Source: Coxiellaceae bacterium
GTDB lineage: Bacteria; Pseudomonadota; Gammaproteobacteria; Coxiellales; Coxiellaceae
Assembly: GCA_029212885.1 (NCBI GenBank)
Contig: JARGPC010000007.1
Span: 4,652 to 68,651 of the forward strand
Direction of reading: 5' to 3'
DNA: 64,000 nucleotides
Shown here: positions 25,005-37,438 of the stretch, piece by piece
Layout of the letters: every line of letters starts with the position of its first letter
How positions within the stretch are numbered: position 1 is the stretch's first letter
Notes under the pieces: model-generated
Seen by the model: the letters and a program-made list of their open reading frames with translations, nothing else
Databases searched by the model: none
What the model was told of the DNA's origin: nothing
Made by a program: the position numbers and the translations under genes

Positions 25005-25697
25005 TTAAGCCATTAACGATTGCAACTGCGGCTGATCCAATAAAGTAATATGGCGACGCCTAACACTAATGACTTGCTGCTTTTCTAATTGCGTCAACAA
25101 GCGGCTAACCGTCTCGCTAGCCAAGCCCAAATAATTGCCAACATCCTCACGTGACATCGGCAAATTGAATTGCGTCGATGAACAACCTCGGCGCTTATAG
25201 CGTGATGATAGGTTTGCTAGAAATCCGACCAGACTTTGCATCGCTGTTGCTTGCCGGCTGGAAAATTGCTCACGCGTCATTTGACCACTCATCATACAAA
25301 ACATTTGTTTTTGTAATATCGGCAATTCAGAGGCCACCTTTAATAATTGTTCAAATGGAATCTTGCATACTGTGCTGGTTTCAAGCGCTTTAACTGTTGT
25401 AATATAACGCTGATCAGAGATTGCATCAAATCCAAACAGCTCTCCAGGCAAGTGAAAGGCGAGTAATTTTTCACTACCATCACTGCTCAATTGCGTGCAT
25501 TTAAATGCACCCGATTGCACTGCATATAATGCTGTAAACTCATCACCAGCTCGACACAACACCTCGCCACGCTCAACCATAATGCTGCGATCAATCAACG
25601 ACGATACCGTCTGCATGTGTTGGTCACTTAACCCCATCGGCAAACAAACCGGATGTAAACAACAATCACCACACCTTACTCTATGCATATCATTCAT
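25005..25697 (-). CDS. fnr: FNR/ANR oxygen-sensing transcriptional regulator (Crp/Fnr family)
   Basis: N-terminal Cys cluster C-x2-C-x5-C (RCGDCCLHPVC) plus a central Cys (ETSTVCKIPFEQL, cf. E. coli ETSMVCEIPFETL). HTH REDVGNYLGLASETVSRLL (cf. REDIGNYLGLTVETISRLL). Confidence 0.9.
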   Translation of the reverse strand: MNDMHRVRCGDCCLHPVCLPMGLSDQHMQTVSSLIDRSIMVERGEVLCRAGDEFTALYAVQSGAFKCTQLSSDGSEKLLAFHLPGELFGFDAISDQRYITTVKALETSTVCKIPFEQLLKVASELPILQKQMFCMMSGQMTREQFSSRQATAMQSLVGFLANLSSRYKRRGCSSTQFNLPMSREDVGNYLGLASETVSRLLTQLEKQQVISVRRRHITLLDQPQLQSLMA

Positions 25698-26965
25698 TTT
25701 ATAATCTCACCCGCTAAACATAACTCATTAACACCCGTCGTATATGGCCCACTGGCCGGCAATCGCAATAAACGCCTCACGGCTAAATAAGCAAAAATTT
25801 CAGCTTCAATGGCTTGCGACTGCCAATTGACTTGATCACACAATAACGCTTCTGCTTTTGGCAAATGCTGCTTTACCAGCTGCTTAAATATGTTAAGTAA
25901 CACCGGATTGTTCCAGCCACCACCCGCAAGAATTAAACGCTGGATCCCGGCTCGGGGGCCGGGATGACAAGTGCGGGGGCCGGAGTCAACCTCTGTCATC
26001 CCCGAGTCAACCTCTGTCATCCCGGACTTGATCCGGGATCCAGCCAACAAGCCTTGCACCAACATATCCGCAGTAAAATACGTCACAGTATAACAAGCAT
26101 CATAAAAAGCCTGCCCCTGTAAAGCGATACCTTCAGGTAAAACCAGGTCATGAATATCTAACGACTTCGGCCATGGCCGATCAGCAAACAACTGCGCATC
26201 ACCGCACACAGCTGTTTGCCACAACTGTTGCAGCAATGCTGTATCAAGCTGGCCTTGAGACGCAAAAAAACCGTCCTTATCATAATGCTGCTTACCCTCA
26301 GTCGCCAGCATCACCAAACGATCAATCAAACCATTACCCGGCCCAATATCACTGGCTTGCACTTGCTCCCAACCTTCACCTGCAACACAGGTGGCATTGC
26401 AAATGCCGCCACAATTTATCACTACCGCCGGCGCTAATTGATCACGCAATACCAATGCCTGATGATAAGCCGGCGCCAACGGTGCGCCCTGCCCACCCTG
26501 CAATACATCATGCAAACGAAATTGGTGCACCAATGGCACCGCTAAAGTATCCGCTAAAGTATCCGCTAAATAATCAGCATCACCCACTTGAATGGTCACC
26601 CCATCTTGTGGTGCGTGATATAACGTCTGCCCATGAAAACCAATCACATCCACCGGTTGATCAACTTGTTGCATTAATTGTTGAATCGCCTGCGCATGAT
26701 ATTGCGTTAATTGCTGCAAACTGCTTACCCAATGATCGCAACGCTGCTGAACAATTGACAGATTACCTTTTGCTTCTGAACACAGCTGCGCCAATTTTTT
26801 TAAGTCGCCTTGCAATGCCGAGGGATAATTAACCGACACATACCCTAACGATTCAATTTCATCCACACCATTAGTGCGGATCATCGCCACATCAACACCA
26901 TCCATTGAGGTGCCGGACATCGTGCCAATTGCTGTATATAAAGTCTGCTGATTCATGCTGCGCAT
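25694..26965 (-). CDS. anmK: Anhydro-N-acetylmuramic acid kinase carrying an in-frame ~105-bp repeat-element insertion
   Basis: N-terminus MRSMNQQTLYTAIGTMSGTSMDGVD matches the AnmK start (MSGTSLDGVD). The C-terminal LILAGGGWNNP corresponds to the conserved GGG(A/V)xN block. The segment SGMTEVDSGMTEVDSGPRTCHPGPRAGIQ is encoded by the family 1 repeat at 25940-26045. The start is chosen at the AnmK-like Met, since the upstream ORF extension to 27187 overlaps the sodC promoter region. Confidence 0.85.
   Translation of the reverse strand: MRSMNQQTLYTAIGTMSGTSMDGVDVAMIRTNGVDEIESLGYVSVNYPSALQGDLKKLAQLCSEAKGNLSIVQQRCDHWVSSLQQLTQYHAQAIQQLMQQVDQPVDVIGFHGQTLYHAPQDGVTIQVGDADYLADTLADTLAVPLVHQFRLHDVLQGGQGAPLAPAYHQALVLRDQLAPAVVINCGGICNATCVAGEGWEQVQASDIGPGNGLIDRLVMLATEGKQHYDKDGFFASQGQLDTALLQQLWQTAVCGDAQLFADRPWPKSLDIHDLVLPEGIALQGQAFYDACYTVTYFTADMLVQGLLAGSRIKSGMTEVDSGMTEVDSGPRTCHPGPRAGIQRLILAGGGWNNPVLLNIFKQLVKQHLPKAEALLCDQVNWQSQAIEAEIFAYLAVRRLLRLPASGPYTTGVNELCLAGEIIK
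25940..26045. repeat. Family 1 hairpin repeat copy inside the anmK coding sequence
   Basis: CTGGATCCCGGCTCGGGGGCCGGGATGACAAG...CCTCTGTCATCCCGGACTTGATCCGGGATCCAG. It has the same termini as the copies at 375-478, 1085-1186 and 33430-33568. Confidence 0.85.
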
Positions 26966-27026
26966 GATAGCACACCCCCCTTTTGATTTGTTACAATCAT
27001 GCCGAACACATCTACAGGAATGTATT

Positions 27027-27518
27027 ATGAAATTTTTAGCCACCCTAGCCCTGTCATTGATCACCGCCACCGCTTTTGCGGATAGCAAAACATTGGTGAT
27101 TAACATGCACCTTTTGAATGGTAAAAATACATCCATTGGCACCATCACCGCCACCGATACTGAAAAAGGTCTCAAGCTAACACCCAATCTGCATGGCTTA
27201 CCGCCAGGTGATCATGGCTTTCATGTACATGTAAAACCCGATTGCAGCAATAAAGGTATGGCAGCCGGTGGACACTACGACCCACTCGATACTAAGCAAC
27301 ACCTAGGCCCTTATAAATATGGCCACCGCGGTGACTTGCCCCGCTTAGAAGCAAACAAAAAAGGCGATGCCGATACGGCCGTTGTTGCACGACACCTCAC
27401 ACTGGAAAAAATCAAAGGCCACAGCTTAATGATTCATGTGCATGGCGATAACTACTCTGACATCCCAAAACCTTTAGGTGGTGGCGGCCCGCGCTTGGCC
27501 TGCGGTGTGATCCAGTAG
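27027..27518 (+). CDS. sodC: Periplasmic Cu/Zn superoxide dismutase
   Basis: Signal peptide MKFLATLALSLITATAFA followed by GFHVHVKPDC, GGHYDP and HGDNYSDIPKPLGGGGPRLACGVIQ. Confidence 0.9.
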   Translation: MKFLATLALSLITATAFADSKTLVINMHLLNGKNTSIGTITATDTEKGLKLTPNLHGLPPGDHGFHVHVKPDCSNKGMAAGGHYDPLDTKQHLGPYKYGHRGDLPRLEANKKGDADTAVVARHLTLEKIKGHSLMIHVHGDNYSDIPKPLGGGGPRLACGVIQ

Positions 27519-30565: not shown

Positions 30566-33436
30566 ATGAGCAGAAAGAAACCTGCAGGTAATGAATATCA
30601 TTTAATGGATGAACACGAACCAGTTATGGTGGGTCGACCAGCACCATCAGCACCGCATGCTGGGGTTGGAGACCTCGAATCCAAACATGGTGACGGCATC
30701 GTCCGTGAACAGATCGGCGACACTTGGCCTGCCGACCTAATCAAACCAAGCGCGGCCTTATTATCCAAACCACAATACCAAGGCGGTGATGGCTTTAGAT
30801 CCATGTACCAACAACTCTATAGTCATGCCGGTAATAAATCAGGCGGCACTTCAATGACCTATGACGTGATGATCAATGAAGGCGAATTAGGTTATCACAC
30901 AACACGTGATGGTAAATTAAAATTACTCGGCCTTGGTCGTCACTGGACAGCAGGGCCATTCTCAACTGACAGTAAATGTAAAAAAGTATCATTAAATCAG
31001 GATGAAGTTCATTTACCGCCCGCCACACGTAGTTCACACAGCCGCTTTCACATCGTACGCGTCAACCCCGGCGAAGTAGTCGCCTATCGATCCAACGGTG
31101 TCGATGGCTTTTTAACTGCCGGCAGTGATGAAGATGGCCGATCGGTACCTGGTTATCATGTGATTGAAAACGACCAAACGTTTCGTGTAACGCAACGTCA
31201 CAACATGAATCAACAGCGCGTCCTAGCACATGCTGGCCCTAACTGGATTTTGAAAGTACCGCCAGGTGAAGTATGCAAAGCATTTGTAGGTTCGAAGCCA
31301 GTTTTATTATCGGAAGGCACACATATTTTTAATAATGCTAATTTTCGTGTATCTGATGCACCATTTGTTAAAACCTCATCGAGCCATATTCAACACAATA
31401 ACTTACACATTATACGTTTAGCACGTGGACAAATGATGGCAGTCAAAGAAGGCACCAATTATCATTTGCTCGGCTCACATCAACTACTCGATGAAGATGC
31501 ACTAGAAGCAAGCCATGCAGATATGCTTGATAAACGCGACCCGTCTGAACCACTAGTATATAACATCAATTCACCCTTATTTCAGGTGTTGAAATTAAGC
31601 GGTGCGGGTGATCGCCCAGCGATTTTTCGCACCAGTGATCCATTAATCCAAGCAGGCTCATTAACCGTGGCTTATGTGCGCGAAGGCACACTTTTGCGTA
31701 TTTGGAATAAAGGGAAACCTGAATTTCTCGAGGCCAGAGATAAACCGTATGTCATCAACAACCCAGCCATTCGTCTCGCCAGTGAAACAGACCCTAACCC
31801 TGCATACCGCTACCCAGCATTAGTGAGCAAAGGCGCGAACGTGATACGTCATGGCGCCAAATGCCGCATCTTTGTGCCCGATGGCCAAGTGTTTTTAGGC
31901 CACCTCCGCGGACAAGCCGTGATACTTGGCGCACGCAAATTAATGAAAGAACGCGAAGACTTAGCCGACGTGCTCGACCATATCGATCCAACGGATTTAA
32001 TGAGCGAAGATGGTAGCTATGTTATTGATGATCCTTCATTCCGCTTAGTCGACGAAACAGCTGCACCCACGCTTGGCATACCGCGCTACCAACACGATGC
32101 ATTGGCTAGCGACCGAGACATTCATCATGGTAACGTCACCATCATGCAAGTAAAACCAGGTGAAGTAGCCGTCGTCAAAGACCTTAAAACCGATAGTAAT
32201 ATCACCTACCCAACTGGTACGCATTTAATCGTGTCACCACAACAAACATTAATCGGCAAGTTACCCTGCAGTGAACAACAACAAGTAATGGATCTAGACG
32301 AGCTGGATGCACAAACCAGTGACTTTCATAAACTGATGATCAAAGCATCGATCACTTACCAAATCACTAACCCTAAATTAGCCGCTCAACAAACTGATCT
32401 CATGAACACACTGCAAAAACAATGCCATGCTGCACTCGGCAACTGCATTAGTAGCACTAAACTGGAGAGCATGGGTCGAGGCAATGTACTACACCACTTA
32501 GCCGAAGACGAAACAAAAGTAAGCGAAGAAAAGGATGAAGAAAACGAGCAACCAGCAGATGAATTTCATCGGGCATTCGATAGCGCCAAAGCTATCTTGT
32601 CCGAATCATTGGAATCAATTGGCGTACACCTAGTGGGTATCAATATCCAACAATGGCATCCCGTCAATGAACACGTCAGTGCTAGTTTGGAGGAAGCAAA
32701 CCTAACCACGCTAACCGCAATGCGTGATGTCACCACCACTGAAGCAGCCGCTTTAAAGCAAGCCGCACAAGCCAAAGGTGATGCCGCCACGTTGGTAGCG
32801 GCTGCCAAAGGTGAAGCGGAAGCGCGCCTCGCGGCTTCCGGTGCCGACAACGAATCGCGAATTCAAGCAGCAAAAACCGCTCAAAGCGAACGTCAAATTG
32901 AAGCCGACGGCGTATTAAAATTAGCTAAAGCCAGAGCAAAAGCCACCAGGGTTGAAGCTAAAGCCCAGGCCGCCGCCGCTAAACTCATAGCTAAAGGAAC
33001 GTTAGCTCAAGCAAAGGCCGAAGCCGAAGGTATCAAGCTAAAGGCCTTAGCAGAGGCCGAAGGTAGCAGAAAACAAATGGAAGCTTTAGCACATGCACCG
33101 CCAGGTCACTGGGCGGTTGAAGCAGAAAAAGCCCGAAGCCAATTATTTACGCACGCATCACTAAACATCACTTCAGCTGAATTCCAAAAACTGTGGATGA
33201 TGACAGCGATGAACCCGATACTGCCTGCGATGCAACAAGCAATGGCCGGTGCGCCAAGTATGGCTAGCATGCCTGGTGTACCTGGTCGAATGCCAACAGG
33301 TATGGCGGTTACCGCGCCACCTACTTTGTTTAGACCAGCATCACCTGTCGCAGCACCGAGCGTACCTGTCGCAACTGCGACAGAAGCTCAAGCGGATGCC
33401 GGTGAGTCTAAGACTGCGACAGCAACTAGGGGATGA
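30566..33436 (+). CDS. Large protein with a flotillin/SPFH-like C-terminal region (Ala/Glu/Lys coiled-coil, band-7-like) and a ~600-aa N-terminal extension of unknown function
   Basis: C-terminal AAQAKGDAATLVAAAKGEAEARLAASGADNESRIQAAKTAQSERQIEADGVLKLAKARAKATRVEAKAQAAAAKLIAKGTLAQAKAEAEGIKLKALAEAEGSRKQMEALA resembles the flotillin (YqiK) tail. The ATG at 30566 is preferred over the GTG at 30551 because of the GGGAG 8 bp upstream. The stop codon TGA lies inside the repeat (GGATGACAA). Confidence 0.5.
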   Translation: MSRKKPAGNEYHLMDEHEPVMVGRPAPSAPHAGVGDLESKHGDGIVREQIGDTWPADLIKPSAALLSKPQYQGGDGFRSMYQQLYSHAGNKSGGTSMTYDVMINEGELGYHTTRDGKLKLLGLGRHWTAGPFSTDSKCKKVSLNQDEVHLPPATRSSHSRFHIVRVNPGEVVAYRSNGVDGFLTAGSDEDGRSVPGYHVIENDQTFRVTQRHNMNQQRVLAHAGPNWILKVPPGEVCKAFVGSKPVLLSEGTHIFNNANFRVSDAPFVKTSSSHIQHNNLHIIRLARGQMMAVKEGTNYHLLGSHQLLDEDALEASHADMLDKRDPSEPLVYNINSPLFQVLKLSGAGDRPAIFRTSDPLIQAGSLTVAYVREGTLLRIWNKGKPEFLEARDKPYVINNPAIRLASETDPNPAYRYPALVSKGANVIRHGAKCRIFVPDGQVFLGHLRGQAVILGARKLMKEREDLADVLDHIDPTDLMSEDGSYVIDDPSFRLVDETAAPTLGIPRYQHDALASDRDIHHGNVTIMQVKPGEVAVVKDLKTDSNITYPTGTHLIVSPQQTLIGKLPCSEQQQVMDLDELDAQTSDFHKLMIKASITYQITNPKLAAQQTDLMNTLQKQCHAALGNCISSTKLESMGRGNVLHHLAEDETKVSEEKDEENEQPADEFHRAFDSAKAILSESLESIGVHLVGINIQQWHPVNEHVSASLEEANLTTLTAMRDVTTTEAAALKQAAQAKGDAATLVAAAKGEAEARLAASGADNESRIQAAKTAQSERQIEADGVLKLAKARAKATRVEAKAQAAAAKLIAKGTLAQAKAEAEGIKLKALAEAEGSRKQMEALAHAPPGHWAVEAEKARSQLFTHASLNITSAEFQKLWMMTAMNPILPAMQQAMAGAPSMASMPGVPGRMPTGMAVTAPPTLFRPASPVAAPSVPVATATEAQADAGESKTATATRG

Positions 33437-33568
33437 CAAACCTTGTCATCCCTGGTAAGACTTGTCATCCCTGGCCCCGACCAGGGATCCACATATTACC
33501 CTGGATCCCGGATCACGCCAGCTTCGCTGGCTGTCCGGGATGACAAGCCAAAGTCCGGGATGACAAAT
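33430..33568. repeat. Family 1 hairpin repeat cluster (GTCATCCCTGG / CCAGGGATCC and GTCCGGGATGACAAG variants) between convergent genes
   Basis: At least four half-units are visible. The cluster supplies the stop codon of the + strand gene and the last ~19 codons plus the stop of the minus-strand DAHP synthase. Confidence 0.85.
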
Positions 33569-34739
33569 CACATTCACACAAATGCGACACCAATAACTTC
33601 GACTGCTCCGGATTCAGGCGCGGATCCACAGGCGAATCATAAGCGCGATCAAGATGATGCTCCTCCATCACCGCACCGCCGCCAATGCATTCAGTAACTG
33701 ACTTGTGTGTCATCTCTAAATGCACGCCATGTAAACGACAATTTTTGCGCTGATGAATATCAAGCGCTTGTGTTAACTCATCCATCATTTCTGCACAATG
33801 GCGTGTTTTCACACCTGTCGCCGTGGTAATGGTGTTGCCATGCATAGGATCGCATAACCATAACACCGGCACCTCTGTGGCTAACGCCGCATCAATTAAC
33901 TTAGGTAAACGCTCAGCAATACGCGACTGACCTAAACGATAAATCAAACTCAACTTGCCAGGAATTTTATCAGGATTTAAACGCACTATCATATCCTGCA
34001 AAACTCGATCGGTTAATGTCGGCCCCACTTTAATCGCCACCGGATTTGCAATGCCACTCGCATATTCAATATGAGCGGAATCCGGTTGTGCCGTGCGCAT
34101 ACCAATCCACGGAAAATGTGTCGACACATTATAGTAATGCCCATCATCGGCTTGGCGCGTTAACGCTTGTTCAAAATCTAAATGCAGTGCTTCATGGCTA
34201 GTGATCAATGACGGCCAATGCGAGTCTTGAATCAAACGCAAACAACGCGTTGCCATATCGTAAGCGGTGAGTAATCGCATCGGATCCAATTGCCGTGCCG
34301 TCGCACTCGGCGCCGCATCATTAATCATGTCACCACGATAGCGTGGAATCGCCGCTTCGTTTACACGCTCCAATAGCTCACTGCGTGGCTTTGCAAACTG
34401 GCCAGCAATGCGCCCTACCGGTAACACATCACAACCCAACTGCTCAGACAAATAGTCACTCAAGTCAGTTAATAATTGCAACTGTGCACTAACATGATGA
34501 CTGCTAATATCCAAAAAGCATTCAGCACAATCACCACCCTGTAAAATAAAACCATCGCCAGCGTAAATTTGCTGTAATCGACTATTCAGCGCTTGAATGG
34601 AAGAGATAGATATCAAACCCTGATATTCAGCTAACTGTTTTAATACTACCTGCAATTCAAGCAGCGCCATTTCACTGTATTGGATCGGTTGGAAATTTTC
34701 ATACTGCCGCCATGAAGACGGCGACCATTGCTTTTTCAT
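33513..34739 (-). CDS. 3-deoxy-7-phosphoheptulonate (DAHP) synthase, class II (AroA-II, plant-like)
   Basis: N-terminal WSPSSWRQYENFQPIQY...FILQGGDCAECF with further conserved class II blocks. The C-terminal tail ...CDLSSRTLACHPGQPAKLA is read from the repeat element. Confidence 0.85.
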   Translation of the reverse strand: MKKQWSPSSWRQYENFQPIQYSEMALLELQVVLKQLAEYQGLISISSIQALNSRLQQIYAGDGFILQGGDCAECFLDISSHHVSAQLQLLTDLSDYLSEQLGCDVLPVGRIAGQFAKPRSELLERVNEAAIPRYRGDMINDAAPSATARQLDPMRLLTAYDMATRCLRLIQDSHWPSLITSHEALHLDFEQALTRQADDGHYYNVSTHFPWIGMRTAQPDSAHIEYASGIANPVAIKVGPTLTDRVLQDMIVRLNPDKIPGKLSLIYRLGQSRIAERLPKLIDAALATEVPVLWLCDPMHGNTITTATGVKTRHCAEMMDELTQALDIHQRKNCRLHGVHLEMTHKSVTECIGGGAVMEEHHLDRAYDSPVDPRLNPEQSKLLVSHLCECDLSSRTLACHPGQPAKLA

Positions 34740-36286: not shown

Positions 36287-36425
36287 GCTGCACCTCTTAC
36301 ACCATTAATCCCGGCATCTTAGCCGGGATTTTTATTTGTAGATACAAGTTCATTGTCCGCCTATCCACCTTGATACCACCCTTAGTCAGAATCGCACGCT
36401 AAAATTGCTAGCTGTGATACAATCA

Positions 36426-36585: not shown

Positions 36586-37438
36586 TGCAACTAAATCAAC
36601 TATTCGAGCCATTGGGCAACTGATACGATTCGACAAGCCCATTGGCAGCTTATTATTACTGTGGCCCACGATGTGGGCATTATGGCTCGCCGCCGATGGC
36701 ATGCCGCCATGGCCAATTCTACTGATCTTTATTGCCGGCGTGTTTGTCACTCGCTCAGCAGGTTGCGTGATCAATGACTTATGGGATCGCAGGTTTGATG
36801 GTCGCGTAAAACGCACCGCCACACGACCACTCGCCAGCGGCGCCCTATCGGTTCGAGCCGCATTGGCAGTGCTATTCATCCTAGCTGCCACCGCTTTAGC
36901 ACTGGTGTTATGCCTGAATGCTTTAACGATTAAACTGGCTTTTGTCGGCGTGGTACTCACCGCGTCGTACCCGGCCTGCAAACGATTTTTTAAATTACCG
37001 CAACTGGTGTTGGGCTTAACATTTAATTGGGGCGTGATCATGGCGTTTGCCGCCATACAAAATCATGTGCCAATGATCGCTTGGTGGCTATATGCCATCG
37101 TGAATGTATGGACAATGGTTTACGACACCCAATATGCCATGGTTGATCGTGATGATGATATCAAGCTCGGCCTGCATTCCAGTGCGATTCTATTTGCAAG
37201 CTATGATCGCGTGATCATTGCCAGCTTACAAACCGTAGTCATTGCAGGGTTGTTATTACTGGCCGTAGCGCGCGCCACGCACTGGCCATTTTATTTATCT
37301 TTAGTCATTGCGAGCGGATTATTTGTATATCAGCAACGACTGACATGGCAACAACAACGCGAACCATGCTTTAAAGCGTTTCTAAACAATCAATGGGTAG
37401 GGCTAGTGATTTGGCTTGGCTGGGTATTAGGCAGCTAA
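36584..37438 (+). CDS. ubiA: 4-hydroxybenzoate octaprenyltransferase
   Basis: NDLWDRRFDGRVKRTATRPLASG and a second Asp-rich motif YDTQYAMVDRDDDIKLG. The start is set at MNATKSTIRA. Confidence 0.9.
   Translation, partial: NATKSTIRAIGQLIRFDKPIGSLLLLWPTMWALWLAADGMPPWPILLIFIAGVFVTRSAGCVINDLWDRRFDGRVKRTATRPLASGALSVRAALAVLFILAATALALVLCLNALTIKLAFVGVVLTASYPACKRFFKLPQLVLGLTFNWGVIMAFAAIQNHVPMIAWWLYAIVNVWTMVYDTQYAMVDRDDDIKLGLHSSAILFASYDRVIIASLQTVVIAGLLLLAVARATHWPFYLSLVIASGLFVYQQRLTWQQQREPCFKAFLNNQWVGLVIWLGWVLGS

Follow-up and report, generated by a model that had tools for sequence, protein, structure and literature searches.

A probable mosaic of TGTC-tagged repetitive extragenic palindromes overlapping the ends of two convergent genes in an uncultured Coxiellaceae bacterium

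When two convergent genes both terminate within the same cluster of short inverted repeats, the question arises whether the repeats have rewritten the ends of the encoded proteins or have simply come to overlap them. This situation is found at positions 33430–33566 of a 64,000-nucleotide stretch of Coxiellaceae bacterium DNA (hereafter the window; assembly GCA_029212885.1, contig JARGPC010000007.1, positions 4,652 to 68,651 of the forward strand), where a plus-strand SPFH/Band-7 gene and a minus-strand gene for a class II DAHP synthase (DAHPS) have stop codons 76 nt apart. An earlier note on this DNA had proposed that a repeat element inserted at the ends of both genes, supplied each with a C-terminal tail, and might in addition act as a bidirectional terminator. 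Our analysis indicates that the cluster is very probably a mosaic of TGTC-tagged repetitive extragenic palindromes (REPs) of the CGTC superfamily in a short convergent-gene spacer, and that a repeat-encoded tail is present in DAHPS but not in the SPFH protein.

The cluster is characterized by a 10-mer, GGGATGACAA, found in five copies between 33430 and 33566 (see the table). With at most one mismatch allowed, the window has 18 occurrences of this 10-mer, versus 2.8 ± 1.7 in 100 shuffled sequences, none of which reached 18. Two complete units, U1 and U2, have tags that point outward and so constitute a head-to-head dimer, and three extra half-units are placed around this dimer. The tag-side arm of U1 and the half-unit at 33442–33455 form a direct repeat family of two identical 14-nt copies, and the segment 33430–33439 pairs with 33443–33452 as a 100% complementary inverted repeat, giving a stem of 10 bp capped by a 3-nt loop. 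The long loop of U2 carries its own hairpin (GCCAGC at 33517–33522 with GCTGGC at 33526–33531), and the first three bases of this loop are the DAHPS stop codon. Fold energies calculated for the two strands of the cluster were −74.3 kcal/mol (z = −6.9 against shuffled sequences) and −79.0 kcal/mol (z = −6.2). No known RNA family was matched over the cluster at Rfam gathering thresholds, the sole match in the window being a 6S RNA located elsewhere. A CRISPR-like array was also considered at this site and rejected, as the repeats show REP half-unit spacing and anatomy, and two small open reading frames (ORFs; 33249–33458 and 33443–33697) were set aside as by-products of the repeats.

Table. Genes, repeat units and dispersed REP sites in the window (positions are those of the window)
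Feature	Position	Strand	Details
SPFH/Band-7 gene, 961 aa	30551–33436	+	Pfam Band_7, E = 1.2e-8
Copies of the 10-mer GGGATGACAA	33430–33439, 33443–33452, 33462–33471, 33537–33546, 33557–33566	+, −, −, +, +	
Inverted half-unit-like GGGAT-GACA-A	33430–33439	−	Contains the SPFH stop codon
Half-unit (C)TTGTC-ATCCCTGG	33442–33455	+	Tandem copy of the U1 tag-side arm, 19-nt period
Complete REP unit U1	33461–33491	+	8/8 stem pairs
U1 tag	33463–33466	+	TGTC
U1 stem, 5′ side	33467–33474	+	ATCCCTGG
U1 loop	33475–33480	+	CCCCGA
U1 stem, 3′ side	33481–33488	+	CCAGGGAT
U1 tail	33489–33491	+	CCA
Spacer of the head-to-head dimer	33492–33501	none	A+T-rich, CATATTACCC
Complete REP unit U2	33502–33546	−	Orientation opposite to U1
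U2 tail	33502–33504	−	
U2 stem, tail side	33505–33512	−	
U2 loop	33513–33533	−	21 nt
U2 stem, tag side	33534–33541	−	
U2 tag	33542–33545	−	
Half-unit TCCGGGAT-GACA-A	33554–33566	−	Tandem copy of the U2 tag-side arm, 20-nt period
Class II DAHPS gene, 408 aa	33513–34739	−	PF01474, E = 6.5e-129; stop TGA at 33513–33515
REP-encoded DAHPS codons (17), L392–A408	33516–33566	−	LSSRTLACHPGQPAKLA
REP site	367–479		Four 21-bp tandem half-units and one complete unit
REP site	619–672		Half-unit and complete unit
REP site	1082–1175		35-bp tandem complete units
REP site	25937–26046		Tail-to-tail cluster, in frame within the AnmK gene
REP site	55232–55245		Half-unit CTGTCATCCC

In terms of family membership, 12 complete tagged units, found in the window and in relatives described below, share one plan, consisting of a (C/T)TGTC tag, an 8-bp stem of the form A[T/C]CCC[G/T]GN (ATCCCGGN), a loop, the complementary stem and a CCA tail. 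All eight stem pairs are formed in every unit, with TGTC directly 5′ of the stem, and CCA stands 3′ of the stem in 11 of the 12, the exception being a unit at 8349 of the relative L081 that is tagged on both sides. Every stem cell of an 11-row short-loop alignment is paired (100%), and at three of the pairs both sides vary (14 cells). The covariation score of this alignment was reached by none of 500 shuffles, and a one-column shift of the partner reduced pairing to 47–57%. The first stem position is always A:T, and the second is T:A in seven of the aligned units and C:G in the remaining four. Loops are of 5 nt (CTTGA, CATGA, CTCGA) or 6 nt (CTACGA, CCCCGA), and of 18–21 nt in three units.

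This plan closely resembles the published definition of CGTC REPs, which specifies a CGTC or TGTC (also CCTC) tag, an 8–9-bp stem starting with AT, a loop of 4–5 nt for which exceptions are acknowledged, a CCA tail and an arrangement mostly as head-to-head dimers, in many dispersed copies that lie chiefly between genes and 3′ of ORFs (Di Nocera et al. 2013, PMC3733652). The superfamily takes in Neisseria dRS3 and Rickettsia RPE-4 and RPE-6, and is present in Coxiella burnetii (PMC3733652). With the CGTC-1 REPs of that study the present units have in common the TGTC tag, the 8-bp stem from AT, a loop that is short in most units, the CCA tail and the head-to-head dimer, as well as a position between convergent ORFs and the existence of intragenic and C-terminal copies. 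The peptide signatures are also alike, with VIPA.., CHSR.. and RHPGLDPGS in the published set (PMC3733652) and VIPE, CHPG, SSR and CHPGLDPGS here. The units described here differ in having loops of 5–6 nt, together with three units whose 18–21-nt loops contain an inner hairpin, and in the prominence of tandem half-unit arrays with a 19–21-nt period, grouped elements being rare according to PMC3733652. The host is a further difference, being an uncultured Coxiellaceae bacterium known from a metagenome-assembled genome (MAG).

To establish what the repeats have done to the two genes, the junction must be viewed in related genomes. A scan of a genome collection with DAHPS yielded only sequences of at most 43% identity, and closer relatives were obtained through a protein cluster, whose members are 87–88% identical yet differ in length, and through exact-protein contig look-ups. 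Four relatives (L081, L088, L090 and L091) are syntenic with the window, the order of a 192-aa gene, DAHPS and the convergent SPFH gene being unchanged, and these make up the junction comparison; L084 and L085 (the P0003 and P0004 loci) were left out, as another gene lies downstream of DAHPS and the SPFH partner is absent. DAHPS is 87–88% identical to that of the window in L088, L090 and L091 and 82% identical in L081, where the syntenic SPFH orthologue is 60% identical.

The four relatives display three different states of the junction. In L088 and L091, DAHPS ends in SHLVGRHVVA and SPFH in TAAIG, and the 190-bp spacer between them (11186–11375 and 1767–1956, respectively) has no REP unit, being unrelated to the REP dimer save for a vestigial CGTCATCC and a small number of patches that align; in L088 a CGTC-ATCC survives as a vestige. 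In L090, DAHPS ends in SHLCERASSSDAVIPENDKVVYPGST, SPFH ends in TATLG, and the spacer holds a REP dimer homologous to the U2–spacer–U1 segment of the window, including a dimer spacer (CATAATATTGC) homologous to CATATTACCC. Finally, in L081 DAHPS ends in NHFMAGLLRHLRVEQHLD, SPFH again ends in TATLG, and a 54-bp spacer contains one hairpin with a 13-bp stem that aligns with U1. In the junction alignment (columns 40–83), the outermost half-unit on the DAHPS side of the window faces the stretch in L088 and L090 that contains their stop region.

The DAHPS of the window is a member of the class II family. It is a 100% match to the 3-deoxy-7-phosphoheptulonate synthase of a Coxiellaceae MAG, it has an invariant core common to 13 homologues, with all catalytic-core residues conserved up to Q379, and the match to PF01474 (430.7 bits) reaches position 430 of the 438 in the profile at residue 380. 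The protein ends in CECD-LSSRTLACHPGQPAKLA, of which the latter part is read from the repeats. The earlier note was thus right that the last codons of DAHPS come from the cluster, with the count amended from about 19 to 17 codons plus the stop. Translation passes through two TGTC-ATCCCGGA arms in different frames, yielding SSR and CHPG, before entering the long loop of U2. None of the tails of the relatives, namely VGRHVVA in L088 and L091, CERASSSDAVIPENDKVVYPGST in L090 and MAGLLRHLRVEQHLD in L081, matches the 17 residues of the window. The tail of L090 is also encoded by REP sequence, in a frame that differs from that of the window; here the arm is read as V-I-P and a TAA within the dimer spacer ends the ORF. 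Among the DAHPS orthologues, the TGTC-ATCCCGG arm is read in all three frames (VIP in L090, SSR and CHPG in the window).

With respect to structure, solved class II enzymes (5uxm and 2b7o) end at about residue 393–396 of the window DAHPS, and the REP-coded part starts at residue 392. By this comparison the 17 residues appear to be essentially an appendage beyond the last barrel helix, and tolerance of the new tail is therefore plausible. The DAHPS of this clade does not have the insertion of about 50 residues that is found in Legionella class II enzymes (the gap falls at residues ~172–175), and the window protein is similar in length to the 405-aa solved chain 6bmc_A.

A different picture emerges for the SPFH gene, which ends in ACT AGG GGA TGA. 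Its Gly codon (33431–33433) and TGA (33434–33436) both lie in the first repeat copy, a position inside the repeat that the earlier note had stated for the TGA, and the overlap with the repeat is confined to 7 nt, comprising the last base of the Arg codon, the one Gly codon and the stop. There is consequently no repeat-encoded tail of the kind that the note had assigned to this gene. In a five-way alignment, the SPFH proteins end at the same homologous residue (TATRG in the window, TATLG in L081 and L090, and TAAIG in L088 and L091). The stop context is GGA TAA in L090, where the stop is situated 6 nt outside the REP dimer, and GGT TAG in L081. L088 and L091, which have no REP unit at the junction, nonetheless read GGA TAA C, a single transition away from the GGA TGA C of the window. 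Because these repeat-free relatives share the C terminus and the position of the stop, the SPFH end was not made by the repeat; such sharing was precisely what the earlier note had held would speak against its proposal. Remodelling of the SPFH C terminus is accordingly not supported by the aligned sequences, in which the repeat overlaps the stop codon without having created a new end. The idea that both C termini were remodelled thus survives for DAHPS, with 17 residues that have no counterpart in the relatives, and not for SPFH, whose end is conserved in five loci.

Taken together, these comparisons suggest, as the most economical one, a history that is more involved than the insertion of one element at both gene ends, given that the dimer is shared with L090 and that the half-unit duplications would have come later. 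Before the window and L090 diverged from their common ancestor, a REP dimer would already have stood in the spacer. In the lineage of the window, tandem duplications of tag-side half-units would then have enlarged this dimer at both ends, and the duplicated half-unit on the DAHPS side (33554–33566) may have replaced some 20 nt that held the ancestral DAHPS stop. Translation of DAHPS would from that point have run 17 codons into the REPs, up to the TGA in the long loop of U2, leaving the enzyme with a non-homologous extension just beyond the end of its fold. In L090, a change of frame upstream of the arm probably had the same effect on the DAHPS stop. On the SPFH side, a native GGA-TAA-C would have become GGA-TGA-C, such that the stop stays at its ancestral position and pairs with the adjacent REP arm. 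The order of these duplication and deletion events is one that we infer from the sequences.

Several considerations weigh against the assignment to the CGTC superfamily and the history just outlined. The published loop range of 4–5 nt is exceeded here, with loops of 5–6 nt and, in three units, 18–21 nt. The copy number is that of 64 kb of the genome, and the order of events draws on an unrooted comparison of four relatives. The extended DAHPS is a predicted protein whose production and activity are putative. In addition, the window comes from a single MAG contig, in which the repeat could have been mis-assembled.

Of the competing explanations, the one that fares best holds that the cluster is a selected bidirectional terminator or mRNA-stabilizing element of both genes, and that the overlap with the stops belongs to this function, for instance through a coupling of translation termination to RNA folding. 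The very stable folds on both strands are in keeping with such a role, as are the retention of some hairpin in the spacer of every relative, including the 13-bp stem in the short spacer of L081, and the enrichment of REPs downstream of convergent ORFs. Nevertheless, no T/U tract follows any of the hairpins, and a terminator scan of both strands over 33430–33570 found no G+C-rich hairpin with a U tract. A hairpin with the same stem at 36305–36338 does have a T-run, and ordinary terminators therefore exist in this genome. Moreover, among the close relatives the spacer varies strongly in length (42, 54, 76 and 190 bp) as well as in content, unlike a conserved regulatory element. We consider this explanation unlikely, and the bidirectional terminator of the earlier note, at least in its classical intrinsic form, finds no support within the cluster.

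A second alternative is that the extended DAHPS tail is an artefact, arising either from an assembly collapse or indel in the repeat or from decay of the gene into a 3′ pseudogene. The source is a MAG contig, a single contig accounts for all records of the exact DAHPS protein, and short half-units in tandem are easily misassembled. Against this, an independent genome, that of L090, also reads DAHPS into a REP at the same site, the catalytic core is conserved up to Q379 as noted above, and the extension begins at the natural end of the fold, all of which makes an artefact very improbable. Weakest is the proposal of a single transposon resembling a MITE, or miniature inverted-repeat transposable element, that inserted once into both 3′ ends and remodelled both C termini, since a cluster that touches both ORFs and a dispersed REP family occupying different sites in related genomes are outweighed by an SPFH end and stop position like those of repeat-free relatives, by the homologous L090 dimer that leaves the SPFH stop outside the repeat, by the lack both of terminal inverted repeats other than the REP arms and of target-site duplications flanking 33430–33566, and by the finding of no Pfam match to a transposase (RAYT/Y1_Tnp or IS110-type) among the window ORFs scanned (three, plus forty of at least 121 aa), and we give it hardly any credence.

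The assignment to TGTC-tagged REPs of the CGTC superfamily is further clarified by comparison with other repeat systems. Like the Rickettsia palindromic elements (RPEs), the repeats of the window are palindromes that join coding sequence without destroying the gene, and the insertion in the AnmK gene (25937–26046) is of this kind; classic RPE-1 elements, however, measure ~100–150 bp and are internal to ORFs, whereas the focal case is a 3′-terminal read-through. Mosaic clusters of inverted imperfect palindromes 3′ of genes are likewise a feature of the REPs and bacterial interspersed mosaic elements (BIMEs) of Escherichia coli. Those of E. coli carry a GTAG tag and go together with REP-associated tyrosine transposases (RAYTs), whereas here no GTAG stands at the foot of the stem, GTAG being seen only in some loops and spacers at 367–472, and no RAYT gene was found among the window ORFs scanned. 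For these E. coli elements, stabilization of mRNA or attenuation of transcription has been proposed, and an effect on translation is reported for REPs near stop codons. Within the same bacterial family as the window, the QMITE1 and QMITE2 elements of C. burnetii are also dispersed palindromes, with copies that extend 1–50 bp into functional genes at their 3′ ends (PMC5896051). By their published description, QMITEs measure 150–400 bp and have both terminal inverted repeats and direct repeats, with a GTAG REP in QMITE2, in contrast to the 33–35-nt TGTC units without visible direct repeats described here. The boundaries of the present cluster are half-units of variable number with no flanking direct repeats, and hence are not those of a MITE.

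In the window as a whole, the REP family occupies six sites, with eight complete tagged units (seven with 5–6-nt loops) and about 10 half-units in the 64 kb. Head-to-head dimers are found at the focal site and in L090, and the dimer in the AnmK gene is tail-to-tail. This gene (anhydro-MurNAc kinase; ORF 25694–27187, minus strand) is a second case of coding REP sequence, in which about 35 residues (AGSRIKSGMTEVDSGMTEVDSGPRTCHPGPRAGIQ) are REP-encoded and the Pfam AnmK match is broken into two stretches; the 66% identical orthologue of L081 has ESRMTGDEPM, about 10 residues, in place of the REP segment. Further tagged units are present in the relatives at 8398–8433 of L088 and 8003–8037 of L090, and L081 has at 8340–8395 a long-loop unit of the U2 type with a compensatory change in its inner hairpin. 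Beyond these genomes, the exact unit TGTCATCCCGG-N7-8-CCGGGATCCA was found on at least 120 metagenome contigs with a G+C content of 32–70%. Among the contigs listed, A-CTTGA-T is the inner sequence seen most often, one also present in three window units, and covariation is observed at the eighth stem pair.

Several of these sites adjoin other genes. The REP mosaics at 367–479, 619–672 and 1082–1175 flank a 121-aa gene downstream of tyrS, and the half-unit CTGTCATCCC abuts the TAG stop of a gene for a MetI/NlpA-fusion ABC transporter (55243–56688, minus strand). Downstream of a YkuD gene, the hairpin at 36305–36338 has the REP stem (AATCCCGGC/GCCGGGATT) with neither a TGTC tag nor a CCA tail and is followed by TTTTTATTT, the T-run that gives it the appearance of a terminator; the orthologous spacers of L081, L088 and L090 have the tagged REP units listed above instead.

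Other features of the window were noted as well. A 6S (SsrS) RNA (Rfam RF00013, 53.6 bits, full length) is encoded at 60189–60368 on the minus strand and adjoins a 5-formyltetrahydrofolate cyclo-ligase gene. At 13653–17404, a LysR regulator gene is divergent from genes for a PvcA/DIT1-like protein, a TauD-family dioxygenase and a cytochrome P450, an arrangement that resembles isonitrile (Pvc-type) biosynthesis clusters. The minus strand also contains a 3455-aa ORF (37435–47802) with no Pfam domain at E ≤ 1e-5, and syntenic giant ORFs of 3193–3425 aa are present in all four relatives.

As for function, the cluster most probably represents selfish or neutral DNA of a kind that builds up on the downstream side of genes. 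By analogy with the generic role of REPs, it may possibly provide a 3′ stem-loop on both convergent mRNAs, protecting them or attenuating read-through. A more ambitious view, that duplication and deletion of REP half-units are a recurrent generator of C-terminal tails in this Coxiellaceae lineage and that the cluster, with stems sequestering both stops, tunes the output of both genes (for example through ribosome pausing at structured stops, or through a hydrophobic C terminus ending in KLA that affects turnover), strikes us as improbable.

REP-encoded C termini and REP-supplied stop codons are already documented. Between convergent ORFs, REPs usually lie no more than 20 bp from both ORFs, and their termini often supply stop codons (PMC3733652). 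The supplement of the same study contains many REP-encoded C-terminal peptides, such as VIPAKAGI and CHSRESGNP, and individual examples include residues 232–240 of 242 in RC0483 and 447–454 of 455 in RC1048 of Rickettsia conorii, 454–473 of 473 in Swit_3211 of S. wittichii, and 176–184 of 186 in CBU_0453 of C. burnetii (VIPACAGMT) (PMC3733652). The present locus is an ordinary by-product of REPs in this respect, and it raises no new biological question. It does offer, at one junction, a clean series of naturally occurring repeat-free, dimer and expanded-dimer forms, which illustrates probable growth by half-unit duplication together with loss of a stop codon. For annotation, the last 17 residues of DAHPS and the segment of about 35 residues in AnmK are repeat-derived and should not be taken as functional motifs, and the variation in gene ends among these MAGs reflects turnover of REPs rather than selection on the proteins.

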